Shown in pieces: positions 40,181 through 61,186 of a DNA stretch of 64,000 bases; position 1 is the first letter of the stretch; each line of letters begins with the position of its first letter. A program made the translations under genes and the position numbers. This DNA is from Minisyncoccota bacterium. Lineage in GTDB: Bacteria > Patescibacteriota > Minisyncoccia > Phycocordibacterales > Zambryskibacteraceae. Location of the stretch: positions 27,821 to 91,820 of the forward strand of contig JAGVCW010000021.1 in the NCBI GenBank assembly GCA_020059045.1, given 5' to 3'. A model generated the notes under the pieces. The model saw nothing but the letters and a program-made list of their open reading frames with translations. It did no database searches and had not been told where the DNA came from.

Positions 40181-40435
40181 TCAGTGTGGTCGGAAGTGGG
40201 AAATGTATAGAACACTACGATCCTTGAGTGCTTGGAGCTCTTTTTTCGTAAGTTTTCTTACAGTACCAGCACCAATTGCTGGGGTATGGCGTTGACCCTT
40301 TGACCTTTCTTCGCAATAAATGCCACTCACATTTCTATGTCGACGCAGTTTTCCATCTGCTCGTAATAGAATCATCCGCCAGCATTTTCGACATTCTCCG
40401 GCGTATGTAGACTGTGGTTTCTTTTTCTTCCCCAC
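40181..40435 (-). CDS. Small basic Cys-containing hypothetical protein
   Basis: 84 aa with CRKC ... C motifs. Confidence 0.3.
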   Translation of the reverse strand: MGKKKKPQSTYAGECRKCWRMILLRADGKLRRHRNVSGIYCEERSKGQRHTPAIGAGTVRKLTKKELQALKDRSVLYISHFRPH

Positions 40436-40696: not shown

Positions 40697-41155
40697 TTAT
40701 AACCGTATCTGATACATTAGCATATTGTCTTCATCTGTATATACATATGAAAAACCAGCTTTTTCTAGAAGTTTTTTAGATATTTCGTTTTCCTTTTCAA
40801 TTCCGGCTTCCACAACTTTTACTTGTTTTACTTCGGGAAGTTTTAGGCCTTCTGTTAAGAGCTCATAACCGAAACCCTTACCTCTCAATTCTGGTGCGAT
40901 AAAGAACGCGACGTATCCTATTTCAGGAGTGTCTATTTCAAAGTCTAGAAAACCAATTGGGTTCTCATCGTTTGAGACTATGAATAAATATCTCTTTTTA
41001 AAATCTATAAGATGTTTATAATCGTCCGTAGATCTATAGGTGGGTAAAAATCTCATCCCAATAGAATCATTTTCAAACCACTTCTTGATGAGTTCTCGGT
41101 CTTTTTCCTTAAATTTTCTGAAATTGATCATGTCTCTATCATAGAGCAAAAGCAC
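40697..41155 (-). CDS. GNAT family N-acetyltransferase
   Basis: ...VAFFIAPELRGKGFGYELL... acetyl-CoA binding motif. Confidence 0.75.
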   Translation of the reverse strand: MLLLYDRDMINFRKFKEKDRELIKKWFENDSIGMRFLPTYRSTDDYKHLIDFKKRYLFIVSNDENPIGFLDFEIDTPEIGYVAFFIAPELRGKGFGYELLTEGLKLPEVKQVKVVEAGIEKENEISKKLLEKAGFSYVYTDEDNMLMYQIRL

Positions 41156-41242
41156 CCTGAGGGTGTTTTTGCTATTTCGCTCCCAGGTGGTTTACCACGA
41201 GCGAGCCTTCGACCTGGCTCAGGCCAGGGCGAAGCGAGTCGA

Positions 41243-41678
41243 GTGGAGATGGGCGGAATCGAACCGCCGTGCAATAGAAGAGATGAAAGATTTCTACAAG
41301 AGGTAGTTTGTTTCAATCTGCCTGTTGGCAGATATTTAGACTCTGTAAGTATGGAACAAACAAAATCTTACAAAGTCGAGCTTCTACATTTCGGAAACAA
41401 GCAAAGCAATTTGTTTCCAGAGTCTCAAGTTATTACGCGAGCAACTTGTTATGAGACATCACAAGTGCTAACGTCGCTTAGGCCGACCCAGACACCGAAG
41501 TGTCGGGTTAAGAGGCGTAAACGAAAGCGAAATCCTTAGCTCCAAAATATGGAGAAACTAGAGACCCAGCTTTTGCGACAATGCTGTTTGCAATTATCGG
41601 TTGTGGCGGATTTAAGAGTCACCACAGCTCTCCCTTGCATCTATCAAATGAATTCTACTGTCTAGGCCGATCATCCCC
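41243..41678 (-). ncRNA. ssrA: Transfer-messenger RNA (tmRNA)
   Basis: - strand 5' end GGGGATGATCGGCCTAGACAG matches the tmRNA 5' consensus. 3' end GGCGGTTCGATTCCGCC-CATCTCC-A forms the T-arm and acceptor. Acceptor stem pairs with a G3-U70 wobble, the Ala identity element. Internal candidate tag ORF starts GCA AAC (A-N...). smpB lies 350 bp away. Confidence 0.8.
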
Positions 41679-41746
41679 TAAATCATCTTGACTACAAGAT
41701 GATCGGGCGAACAATTTGCGGAGCAAAATTGTTTTAGCCCCACAAA

Positions 41747-42019
41747 CTAATTGTTACGCCCTATTTTGTCTAAATATTTCTTTAGTATTTTCTTTTTTTC
41801 TCTTGCTGACCACAATGTCTTAAGAAAACGCTCCCTTTGGAATGCATCTGACTTGTCTAAGTATTTTTCTTGGTGAATAACAACAAGAGGTCTGCGCGAT
41901 CTAGTAGAAAGTACTTTTCCACTATTGTGCGCTTGAATTCTTTTTTGTATATTCTTCGTGCATCCAACATAGAGCCCACTGTCTTTGGTACTAAGCAATA
42001 TGTATACAAAATAGTGCAT
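41747..42019 (-). CDS. GIY-YIG nuclease domain protein (UPF0213-like)
   Basis: YFVYILLS...GLYVGCT...RIQAHN GIY-YIG motif. Confidence 0.8.
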   Translation of the reverse strand: MHYFVYILLSTKDSGLYVGCTKNIQKRIQAHNSGKVLSTRSRRPLVVIHQEKYLDKSDAFQRERFLKTLWSAREKKKILKKYLDKIGRNN

Positions 42020-42023
42020 AAGC

Positions 42024-42467
42024 CTATTTATATTTCAAAGTTCTTCTCATCTCTCTCTCGGTCTCTCTTTTCTTTATACTCTGACGTTTGTCCCGTGTTT
42101 TCTTACCACGGGCTATGCCGATTGCTACCTTGATTTTTCTTCCTTTATTATACACCGAAAGTGGTACTACTGTCAAACCTCTTTGCCTCTCAGAATCCAT
42201 AATAGTTTTAATCTCAGCTTTGGTTAGCAGGAGCTTGCGGTTTCTTCTCGAATCATAACCTTTTGGGGTGTTCGCAGCCTGATAGGGAGGAATATCTGAG
42301 CCCACGAGGAATGCTTCATTACCTCGTGCGATTACGTGCGATCCGTCGAGTGACCCACGTTTCATGCGCAAAGCTTTAACTTCAAATCCAAGCAGCTCTA
42401 TACCCGCCTCGATTTTCTCGAGTATTTCGTAGTTAAACCCTACCTTTTTGTTCTCAACTAGTGACAT
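42024..42467 (-). CDS. smpB: SsrA-binding protein SmpB
   Basis: NKKVGFNYEILEKIEAGIELLGFEVKALR... Confidence 0.9.
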   Translation of the reverse strand: MSLVENKKVGFNYEILEKIEAGIELLGFEVKALRMKRGSLDGSHVIARGNEAFLVGSDIPPYQAANTPKGYDSRRNRKLLLTKAEIKTIMDSERQRGLTVVPLSVYNKGRKIKVAIGIARGKKTRDKRQSIKKRETEREMRRTLKYK

Positions 42468-42546: not shown

Positions 42547-42873
42547 TTGACACTTCATCATAAATACAATATTGTTTGGGTAGAACTCACAACAGGAGAC
42601 GAGTATAAGATGTTACGTCGTCAGTGTCATGCCGCACCAAAGAGAAGTATGGTGCCGCTCTGTCGGAAGGAAACAGTTGAGCAGACACAGATCCAAATTG
42701 GTGAGTTATGGGCAGAACCTCATGAAAAAGATTTGGTTGATTGTCCCGAGTGTGTAGCACTTATCGATAAGTATCTTCTGGGGCAAAAGGAGATACGTAT
42801 GAGAAAAGAAGTTAATACAAAGAATGATCGCAGGTCCAAGTACTTGCTCAACGATCTTTCAAACGTAGCGTGA
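42547..42873 (+). CDS. Hypothetical protein
   Basis: 108-aa ORF upstream of ftsH. Confidence 0.35.
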   Translation: MTLHHKYNIVWVELTTGDEYKMLRRQCHAAPKRSMVPLCRKETVEQTQIQIGELWAEPHEKDLVDCPECVALIDKYLLGQKEIRMRKEVNTKNDRRSKYLLNDLSNVA

Positions 42874-48801: not shown

Positions 48802-48875
48802 GTCCACCCTCCACGATTTGAACGTGGGACCCTCGAGGTATAAGCTCGATGCTCTAACCAACTGAGCTAAGGGTG
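48802..48875 (-). tRNA. tRNA-Ile, anticodon TAT (UAU)
   Basis: - strand cloverleaf: acceptor CCACCCT/AGGGTGG, D-arm GCTC/GAGC, anticodon arm TCGAG-CTTATAC-CTCGA, T-arm CCACG-TTCAAAT-CGTGG. 74 nt, no encoded CCA. Confidence 0.75.
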
Positions 48876-49053
48876 GTATAGCGCTCAAATACTATATCAA
48901 ATATGGAAATCCTTCAATTATTACAGTCGTGCGGTTAAGTGTCCCAGCTATCCACAACGTGAGTATTCACATTGTTATAACCTAAGGGTATACTTCTAAT
49001 CAAGTTGCGGTCCTGTCTTGAAACCTTATTTATTCTTAACTTCTCTTAATAAT

Positions 49054-61096: not shown

Positions 61097-61186
61097 TGGC
61101 GGAGAGAGTGGGATTCGAACCCACGGTTCCGGTAAAGGAACGACGGTTTAGTAAACCGTTGATTTAAACCACTCATCCATCTCTCC
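61097..61186 (-). tRNA. Type II tRNA, Ser-like, with anticodon ACT
   Basis: - strand: acceptor GGAGAGA/TCTCTCC, discriminator G, encoded CCA, 3-bp D-stem, anticodon arm ACGGT-TTACTAA-ACCGT, long variable arm GTTCC...GGAAC, T-arm GTGGG-TTCGAAT-CCCAC. Confidence 0.7.

Follow-up and report, generated by a model that had tools for sequence, protein, structure and literature searches.

The stretch of DNA analyzed here, a 64,000-nucleotide window of contig JAGVCW010000021.1 (hereafter, the window), carries a trans-translation operon of a Paceibacteria-type (Patescibacteria) ultra-small bacterium. The leader of its transfer-messenger RNA (tmRNA) gene, ssrA, holds a two-part insert that most relatives lack, composed of a gene for a small GIY-YIG nuclease, which follows smpB, and a double-hairpin element that abuts the first base of tmRNA (cf. 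Table 1). We lean slightly towards the view that this insert is a selfish nuclease-palindrome module, or a formerly mobile one that is now mostly inherited vertically, residing in the pre-tmRNA leader. The module is probably dispensable and repeatedly lost, and probably no component of ribosome rescue. This view is based on the following observations: (i) the linkage of the gene with the element, hairpins made of Watson-Crick pairs only, inverted-repeat ends, and tandem copies; (ii) solo copies of the element elsewhere in both orientations and the Slx1-type nature of the nuclease; and (iii) repeated loss of the gene as well as the presence of other small GIY-YIG genes around tmRNA. The tmRNA and smpB are of known kinds; what seems to be novel, judging from a literature search, is a putative promoter embedded in smpB, the attachment of a GIY-YIG gene to the 5' flank of tmRNA, and the element itself. 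An earlier, sequence-only reading of this DNA had placed smpB, a GIY-YIG gene, and tmRNA on one strand, and matches to Pfam, NCBIfam, and Rfam put all three on the minus strand.

The product of the inserted gene, a 90-residue protein that the sequence-only reading had correctly recognized as a GIY-YIG nuclease encoded between ssrA and smpB, matched Pfam family PF01541 with 53.3 bits (cut-off 22.6). A profile built from 39 homologues hit the UPF0213 structures 1ywl (E 2.4e-12) and 1zg2 (E 3e-10). The AlphaFold2 model of the protein (predicted local distance difference test, 94.1; predicted template modeling score, 0.82) was compared with known structures using Foldseek, and the best match was again 1zg2, followed by the nuclease domains of Slx1 (root-mean-square deviation 1.5-3 Å, 27-32% identity) and then by I-TevI. 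Slx1 is a branched-DNA nuclease (PMC7017083). Residues Y6, Y17, V18, G19, R27, H31, and E63 were invariant in the 39 homologues, and the protein is a predicted nuclease with intact catalytic residues. The catalytic roles of these residues are presumably those of their counterparts in I-TevI and UvrC, from which we assigned them. Both the Pfam scan and the model indicated that the 90 residues make up the catalytic domain alone, with no DNA-binding domain.

The genomic position of this gene was analyzed in two sets of related loci, for which labels of the form L### are used below. For the first set, the closest GIY-YIG homologues (58-71% identical) were aligned and used to scan metagenomes, and the best 80 loci were examined. 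smpB was located directly upstream of the nuclease gene in 79 of them, with a median distance of about 10 nucleotides (nt) between the smpB stop codon and the GIY-YIG start codon and with overlaps in some loci, while a detectable tmRNA came directly after the gene in 69, most of the others being cut off by the contig end. The only exception (L109) had a RelE/Phd-like toxin-antitoxin pair upstream of the GIY-YIG gene and the hairpin element still downstream of it; the sequence that follows reads by eye like a divergent tmRNA 5' end, and nhmmer found no tmRNA there. The second set was composed of 80 loci fetched with a SmpB alignment from species-representative (GTDB) genomes. A tmRNA gene on the same strand followed smpB directly in 79 of these, the 80th contig ending too early, and just three of the 79 (L021, L061, and L069) carried a GIY-YIG gene between smpB and ssrA. 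The sequence-only reading had suggested checking the conservation of the nuclease gene at this position in relatives, and the position proved nearly invariable among the closest homologues of the gene, which itself was scarce among species representatives. From this synteny, the gene is best described as position-specific and no incidental neighbor of tmRNA. In four loci (L139, L140, L141, and L146; e.g., L140 2501..2758), the GIY-YIG open reading frame (ORF) was intact apart from a TGA codon at the invariant Gly of YVGC, the explanation being either a nonsense mutation of recent date or the decoding of UGA as Gly.

Two other explanations have to be weighed at this point. One is that the protein is an ordinary Slx1/UPF0213-type repair nuclease that became fixed here in one lineage, the hairpins being a terminator, an attenuator, or an operator. 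Stand-alone GIY-YIG domains of the UPF0213 type are indeed widespread, and the window contains only one GIY-YIG gene, but the location of the 80 closest homologues, every one of them at the 5' flank of tmRNA, is more than chance synteny can account for, and we regard this explanation as rather improbable. The other one is that the nuclease is an accessory of trans-translation or of tmRNA biogenesis, acting in leader processing or in non-stop mRNA decay, and that the element is an RNA signal, i.e., a site of processing or of protein binding, or a structure that stabilizes the 3' end of the GIY-YIG mRNA once RNase P has cut. We consider it unlikely. It would account well for the strict position beside tmRNA among the 80 homologues (that of L109 being counted by eye), for the tight packing with smpB, and for the invariant catalytic residues. 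However, a gene that is present in 3 of 79 species representatives and has repeatedly been lost is not needed for trans-translation, the closest structures are those of DNA nucleases, and a literature search revealed no paper on a bacterial operon in which a GIY-YIG gene is linked with tmRNA or smpB.

The second part of the insert, the element, lies entirely within the 68 nt that separate the GIY-YIG stop codon from the first base (G1) of tmRNA. It consists of two perfect Watson-Crick hairpins (HP1 and HP2) amid the conserved motifs GGCTAA..CGCCCGA..TTTAG, and its ends form inverted repeats, CTAAA(N)C and G(N)TTTAG. The fold energy of the window element was -35.6 kcal/mol (z -5.4), and a covariance model of the element (R1) gave it a score of 68.3 bits. 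When 38 units were aligned, 98.8% of the cells were paired and compensatory changes were present at 14 of 21 pairs (134 double changes) with no G-U pair at all, a degree of pairing that neither shuffles nor register shifts of the alignment came close to. A model-based alignment of 126 distinct matches likewise contained about 0.4% G-U cells versus 617 double changes. Such restriction to Watson-Crick pairs points towards a constraint acting at the level of DNA, and it argues against the nuclease and its element being an RNA-based accessory of trans-translation. 

The presence of the element closely followed that of the gene. About 49 of 51 unique spacers holding the GIY-YIG gene (GIY-plus) contained it, in one to three tandem copies, versus none of 74 spacers without the gene (GIY-minus); in the leaders, R1 matched all four GIY-plus sequences tested (three GTDB loci and the window). 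Near-identical copies in tandems of two to three were located before tmRNA in L123 (1417..1590), L105 (2794..2990), and L061 (4725..4856), and in some copies (L082 2779..2868, L106, and L117) an extra GC-rich stem-loop (..CGCCCTAGGGCG..CCGGGCTAGCCCGA..) was nested in the CGCCCGA motif. An RNA role is plausible for a hairpin at this site, since one abuts G1 of tmRNA at the end of many GIY-minus leaders as well, and with few exceptions the copies of the element in leaders are oriented in the sense direction, as the accessory explanation would have it. An Rfam search by E-value of four related element-carrying loci returned only tmRNA, tRNA, and chance microRNA matches, and no description of the double-hairpin element was found in a literature search; it appears to be undescribed.

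Copies of the element were also present away from the leader. In GIY-minus loci, R1 detected matches elsewhere in three cases, i.e., an intergenic copy on the opposite strand (L006), a solitary copy directly adjoining a tRNA-Ile(UAU) gene at its 5' end (L019), and a half copy (L035), in addition to a weak partial match in the leader of L024. The GIY-plus metagenome loci held up to four copies each when both strands were counted. Moreover, the element was found inside the tmRNA gene itself at no fewer than three positions, that is, at least in L085, L129-L136, L130, and L158, in L106 and L117, and in L138, and an antisense copy was present within the tmRNA of L128. When compared with uninterrupted relatives, the copies in tmRNA were clean insertions of about 60 nt. 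GG occurred on both flanks in 65 of 102 instances of the element, and most right flanks were the GGGG of tmRNA. The occurrence of copies in both orientations and away from tmRNA is hard to reconcile with an accessory acting through an RNA signal. Since sense copies are found inside tmRNA, the element can be no efficient terminator. An efficient terminator located there, or between tmRNA and the only visible promoter, would be harmful, which counts against a housekeeping repair nuclease with regulatory hairpins; that explanation also leaves the tandem duplication of the element and its insertion in tmRNA and beside a tRNA unaccounted for.

Several other identities of the element were considered and rejected. 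A function of HP2 as a terminator was dismissed in view of the sense copies that sit inside tmRNA and between it and the sole visible promoter. With a permissive pattern, 41 matches turned up in viral contigs, but these were chance matches that R1 rejected (two scored 25 bits), and the element is not phage-borne. The element is no integron attC site either, as its ends, GGCTAAA and GTTTTAG, do not fit RYYYAAC and GTTRRRY, and a Pfam scan of three flanking ORFs (42547-42873, 40697-41155, and 40181-40435) revealed no integrase domain. Finally, a type III toxin-antitoxin system, i.e., a nuclease with tandem RNA repeats, was discarded, most loci having a single unit that is placed 3' of the gene.

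The history of the gene could be followed best in the most closely related pair of loci with and without it, L092 (GIY-plus) and L038 (GIY-minus), whose SmpB proteins are 91% identical; the closest GIY-minus relatives of L092 as a whole share 88-91% identity in SmpB with it. Instead of the element, L092 has a stretch of 47 nt that repeats the smpB tail in direct orientation (2 mismatches), and the breakpoint coincides exactly with the element's 5' edge; L038, L075, and L026 have the junction expected from recombination between the two repeats. The GIY-YIG protein of L092 is 83-90% identical to those of relatives with a SmpB identity of 84-86%, so that the gene is old in its clade. The difference between L092 and L038 looks like a loss caught midway. 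Another trace was found in L024, which has no GIY-YIG gene and retains a relic of HP2 together with GTTTTAG. Among the 51 unique GIY-plus spacers, direct repeats of the smpB tail were confined to L092, so that they are no general signature of insertion.

These data also bear on the possibility that the gene encodes a classical free-standing homing endonuclease of the T4 Seg or I-TevI type, which would cut tmRNA loci devoid of the gene and spread by recombinational repair, with the element as a by-product or as an alteration of the target site that confers immunity. The sporadic distribution of the gene and its location next to a highly conserved RNA gene are what such an enzyme would lead one to expect. 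Nevertheless, the best documented polymorphism, L092 versus L038, looks like a loss and not a gain, the 90-residue protein is a catalytic domain with no DNA-binding domain, and its score against the NCBIfam model of group I intron endonucleases (TIGR01453) was only 19.4 bits, far under the cut-off of 56. A homing origin is, in our opinion, very improbable.

Further GIY-YIG genes were found on the other side of tmRNA. Two more distant subfamilies were located 87-540 nt downstream of its 3' end, the first in L008, L022, L055, L092, L115, L151, L157, and L159, and the other one in L029, L056, L058, L095, L098, and L128, and some loci had a nuclease gene on both flanks. This arrangement is in line with homing enzymes, several subfamilies of which would have settled around the same RNA gene, and it is left unaccounted for by an ordinary repair nuclease; different GIY-YIG genes on the two flanks of one tmRNA also speak against an accessory of trans-translation. 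In the window, the tmRNA gene is followed by a trailer motif that was also present after tmRNA in nine other unique loci. In six of these (L008, L022, L092, L151, L157, and L159), the trailer, CCAC|TCGACTCG..CTCGCTCGTGGYAARCCACC.., in most of them continued by ..GCGAGTCGAGTG, precedes the gene of the first of the two downstream subfamilies. The window has the first part of the motif and lacks both this downstream gene and the distal inverted repeat GCGAGTCGAGTG. Duplicates of the tmRNA 3' end were observed about 100 nt downstream in L003 (4917..4971) and about 490 nt downstream in L055 (about 5400), and they look like scars of elements that had integrated at the 3' end of ssrA. Next to the terminator-like hairpin that comes after the trailer, the listed GTG start codon of a GNAT acetyltransferase ORF (40697..41155, minus strand) overlaps this hairpin, and translation more plausibly begins with the ATG at 41131 (MINFRKF..).

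How the insert would be expressed was suggested by a pattern scan, which revealed a sigma-70 promoter sequence within smpB, with a -35 hexamer formed by codons L98-T99 and a -10 hexamer formed by codons Y106-N107. Among 131 unique related smpB genes, 78 had the promoter with a score of 12/12 and 115 with a score of at least 11/12. Where the residues are L-T...Y-N, the codons that make up the promoter were strongly preferred at this site: TTG for Leu in 99% of cases versus 20% in the background, ACA for Thr in 87% versus 30%, TAT for Tyr in 88% versus 61%, and AAT for Asn in 99% versus 63%. These frequencies argue that the embedded promoter is kept in relatives by synonymous codon choice, beyond the coding constraint. 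On the minus strand, the scan found no further promoter-like site between this promoter and the 5' end of tmRNA. The distance between smpB and tmRNA was 1-12 nt in 16 of the 80 species-representative loci, and in L066, L078, L003, L019, L043, and L051, the smpB stop codon lies as little as 1-3 nt before G1. In loci with a gap of 1-3 nt, cleavage by RNase P would leave a smpB mRNA that ends near its stop codon and could amount to a nearly non-stop message. As gaps this short cannot accommodate an intergenic promoter, ssrA has to be driven by the embedded promoter or by that of smpB itself, and the embedded one is likely to be the promoter of ssrA and of the GIY-YIG gene. A literature search returned no description of a smpB-embedded promoter.

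Taken together, these findings led us to propose the following course of events. ssrA would be transcribed from the promoter inside smpB, in which case everything between this promoter and G1 of tmRNA is a pre-tmRNA leader. By cutting at G1 (41678), RNase P would free tmRNA from an upstream RNA that ends in HP2. The nuclease-palindrome module would exploit this strongly expressed leader, and its structure-selective nuclease may act on hairpin or cruciform DNA formed by its own element, much as repetitive extragenic palindromic (REP) elements depend on REP-associated tyrosine transposases (RAYTs). A bolder proposal is that the nuclease mobilizes or maintains its own palindrome, which would target tRNA-like genes at their 5' edge (GG) and could invade the body of tmRNA, so that the insert would represent an unrecognized mobile system, a GIY-YIG counterpart of REP/RAYT, with related subfamilies on the other flank. 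We put this forward tentatively and, on balance, doubt it.

A number of observations weigh against a selfish or mobile module. On a neighbor-joining tree of SmpB, the presence of the GIY-YIG gene required about 23 changes versus 45 for shuffled labels, i.e., GIY-plus loci cluster beyond chance. The distances of GIY-YIG and SmpB were correlated (Mantel r 0.45, permutation maximum 0.25), and the mean divergence of the two proteins was about equal (0.40 and 0.42, respectively). The clustering and the correlation point to an inheritance that is mainly vertical with frequent change. Mainly vertical inheritance is what an ordinary repair nuclease would display, and co-divergence with SmpB is what an accessory of trans-translation would display; co-conversion of the flanks would produce the same correlation for a homing endonuclease, for which, however, one would expect a divergence lower than that of SmpB and not equal to it. 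Pseudogenes are scarce, with a disrupted gene in one species only (TGA at the invariant Gly), and no GIY-YIG remnants were found in the GIY-minus loci with long gaps (L011, L022, L080, L034, and L023), which suggests selection for a function over a cycle of gain, decay, and loss. The element is present in one copy within the 64-kb window and is not a dispersed repeat there, and the comparison of filled with empty sites was ambiguous and did not establish a target-site duplication. Since the nuclease has no DNA-binding domain, its site specificity is left unaccounted for. Lastly, we infer both the use of the embedded promoter and the RNase P step from sequence alone.

The tmRNA gene itself was identified by Rfam. 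The window matched the tmRNA model RF00023 at 41241..41678 on the minus strand with 101.5 bits (E 1.7e-38; gathering score 47 bits) over model positions 1-374 of 374, in accordance with the minus-strand tmRNA that the sequence-only reading had recognized here. Its 5' end, read directly from the sequence, is GGGGATGATCGGCCTAGACAG, with G1 as the first base, and its 3' end is GGCGGTTCGATTCCGCC-CATCTCC-A, where GGCGGTTCGATTCCGCC belongs to the T-arm (GGUUCGAUUCC) and the discriminator A is at 41244. Both ends agree with those read from the letters alone, as does a G3-U pair (proposed as G3-U70) in the 7-bp acceptor stem, GGGGATG/CATCTCC. The discriminator is followed by CTC and no CCA is present in the gene sequence, which means that CCA is added after transcription. 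The resume codon of the tag, GCA, is at 41591..41589 with UAA-UU just before it, and the TAA stop codon is at 41510..41508, so that the tag of about 27 residues beginning with GCA that had been predicted was borne out as GCA with 27 codons, ANSIVAKAGSLVSPYFGAKDFAFVYAS. The charging with alanine, the binding of SmpB, and the tagging of proteins are predicted functions of this tmRNA.

To obtain the tags of relatives, the resume codon was located with the help of a profile alignment; 132 related tmRNAs yielded 120 unique tags. They were homologous to ANSIVAKAGSLVSPYFGAKDFAFVYAS, 20-30 residues long, most commonly 27-29 codons, and had the core SPYFG..DFAFAYA. SP[YF] was present in 101 of the 120, many of which read ..KAKSxVSPYFGxxDFAFAYAxA, and 104 tags had Ala as their last residue, 7 had Val, and 4 had Ser. 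ANNLVTKAKSVVSPYFGAKDFTFAYAIA, the tag of L025, for instance, differs from that of the window mostly at its ends. Both the length and the terminus of the window tag had been called atypical by the sequence-only reading. In comparison with model organisms this is correct, and the terminal Ser alone remains a minority state within the clade, but the length, though long by Escherichia coli standards, is by these comparisons ordinary for the lineage.

The 98-residue ORF on the plus strand, which is wholly antisense to tmRNA, had been dismissed as spurious, and all our data point the same way. It had no match in a Pfam scan. Relatives resembled it only over ~24-35 residues at its start, a part that lies antisense to the T-arm and the acceptor stem, stop codons were present inside 14 of the 32 matching tblastn segments, and no conserved antisense ORF over tmRNA was found by tblastn among the relatives. 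On these grounds, the ORF is spurious.

A run of ARAGORN or of the Rfam model had been proposed as a check of the tmRNA, and the two tools behaved differently. The Rfam/Infernal result was unambiguous, but ARAGORN called no tmRNA in the window at the default setting or with -ps90 or -ps80, so that the refuting outcome named beforehand, a failure of these tools, came about in half. With -ps70, all of its calls were pseudo or permuted tmRNAs with incorrect boundaries, although two of the three bore the exact tag of the window. ARAGORN also missed 21 of the 80 related tmRNA loci, among which nhmmer recovered 19 full tmRNAs and one fragment cut by the contig end. Because 19 of the 21 missed tmRNAs were found in full by nhmmer, the failure reflects a limit of the tool in this clade and not a defect of the gene. 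Pipelines that rely on ARAGORN will consequently under-call tmRNA in Paceibacteria, about a quarter of relatives being missed. The tmRNA and smpB of the window are routine in themselves, and they add a correctly delimited tmRNA with its tag for a poorly sampled phylum.

Table 1 Features of the trans-translation locus and its surroundings in the window
Feature	Position	Strand	Remarks
Terminator-like hairpin after the trailer	41153..41165	minus	CACCCTCAGGGTG then CTTTTGCTCT; pattern scan, consensus match only
3' trailer motif	41186..41243	minus	CTCGACTCG...CTCGCTCGTGGTAAACCACC
Spurious 98-residue ORF	41243..41539	plus	wholly antisense to tmRNA
ssrA, one-piece tmRNA, 435 nt	41244..41678	minus	Rfam RF00023; CCA added after transcription
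Tag reading frame (predicted)	41508..41591	minus	GCA resume codon, 27 codons ANSIVAKAGSLVSPYFGAKDFAFVYAS, stop TAA
Double-hairpin element, 63 nt	41679..41741	minus	GGGGCTAA-HP1(41733..41710)-CGCCCG-HP2(41703..41682)-TTA; abuts tmRNA G1
GIY-YIG nuclease gene (predicted), 90 residues, Slx1/UPF0213 type	41747..42019	minus	PF01541; start 4 nt past the smpB stop codon
smpB, SsrA-binding protein, 147 residues	42024..42467	minus	PF01668, TIGR00086
Putative sigma-70 promoter TTGACA-N18-TATAAT	42147..42176	minus	inside smpB codons 98-107; pattern scan 12/12
ftsH, 650 residues	42940..44892	plus	divergent from smpB

The remaining genes of the locus are conserved as well. SmpB of the window matched Pfam PF01668 (159.8 bits, E 5.1e-47, profile positions 2-142 of 143) and NCBIfam TIGR00086 (159.8 bits, cut-off 119.1), and it was 64-72% identical to its aligned top homologues, the named ones of which were labeled Parcubacteria or Paceibacterota. 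Many other loci carry Saccharibacteria as their source label. One locus (L060, JBEBJM010000036.1) is labeled Nitrospira sp., yet it has a smpB-tmRNA arrangement of the Paceibacteria type, a SmpB 63% identical to that of the window, and a tag typical of the clade; its contig is probably mis-binned. A tblastn search found an ftsH homologue in 71 of the 80 species-representative loci, and in 63 it lay upstream of smpB on the opposite strand. The conserved neighborhood is thus ftsH followed by smpB and ssrA in the opposite direction, which suggests that the rescue genes and a protease gene form a conserved cluster. By analogy with E. coli, FtsH is a candidate protease for the tagged proteins. Elsewhere in the window, ARAGORN and Rfam detected a tRNA-Ile with the anticodon UAU, starting with C1, at 48802..48876 (minus strand), an unusual tRNA that was also present in L019 and L024. 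ARAGORN also called a tRNA-Ser with the anticodon ACU, i.e., with A at position 34, at 61097..61186 (minus strand); in bacteria, GCU is usual for the codons read by this tRNA.

To our knowledge, no function has been assigned to a stand-alone Slx1-like GIY-YIG domain in bacteria, and a nuclease tied to one address and one palindrome offers a concrete substrate hypothesis for the UPF0213 family. ssrA is known as an integration hotspot. Palindromes and small nuclease genes accumulate on the two sides of tmRNA, and the elements within it as well, which would extend this role to the 5' side in ultra-small bacteria. A ssrA promoter kept inside smpB by synonymous choice across the whole class would be a clean natural example of dual coding, and it would imply that RNase P cleavage sets the 3' end of the upstream mRNA.

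When compared with known systems, the tmRNA and SmpB of the window resemble other one-piece tmRNA (RF00023) and SmpB (PF01668) pairs in the match over the full model, the tRNA-like domain with its G3-U pair, the GCA resume codon after UAA-NN, the adjacent smpB, and a tag that ends in a hydrophobic Ala-rich tail. They differ from them in the 27-codon tag with the clade core SPYFG..DFAFAYA and a Ser end, in the unencoded CCA, in the failure of ARAGORN to find the gene, and in the putative promoter within smpB. The nuclease is similar to the proteins of the UPF0213 family (1ywl and 1zg2), including E. coli YhbQ and Bacillus subtilis YazA, and to Slx1 (6seh and 7cq3), as it is a stand-alone catalytic domain of about 90 residues with the same fold and the same catalytic residues. 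Slx1 cuts branched and hairpin DNA. Unlike these proteins, the present subfamily is locked to the 5' flank of tmRNA with a cognate double-hairpin element, and unlike Slx1, it has neither a Slx4-like partner nor a zinc finger. It shares with homing GIY-YIG enzymes (T4 Seg, I-TevI) a patchy distribution and a gene inserted between conserved genes and beside a tRNA-like one, but it is devoid of a C-terminal DNA-binding domain, mostly vertically inherited, and accompanied by a hairpin element. With integron cassettes, the insert has in common a promoterless ORF with a structured palindrome at its 3' side behind a strong resident promoter; here, however, no integrase is encoded by the three flanking ORFs scanned, the attC core sites are not matched, and two short perfect hairpins take the place of one long imperfect hairpin. 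Short palindromic elements inserted in RNA genes, including tmRNA, are known from Rickettsia (Rickettsia palindromic elements, RPEs; Ogata et al. 2002, cited in PMC2229807). The present element resembles them in lying inside tmRNA, whereas RPEs are 105-146 bp long, widely dispersed, often inserted in frame in proteins, and have no associated nuclease gene. REP elements with their bacterial interspersed mosaic elements (BIMEs) and RAYTs encode a HUH tyrosine transposase instead of a GIY-YIG nuclease, and our element has a very low copy number concentrated at one locus, with a putative mobility; with these systems and with the subterminal hairpins of IS200/IS605, the module nevertheless shares a small nuclease gene and short covarying palindromes that occur singly or in tandem, the unit being found also without the gene.

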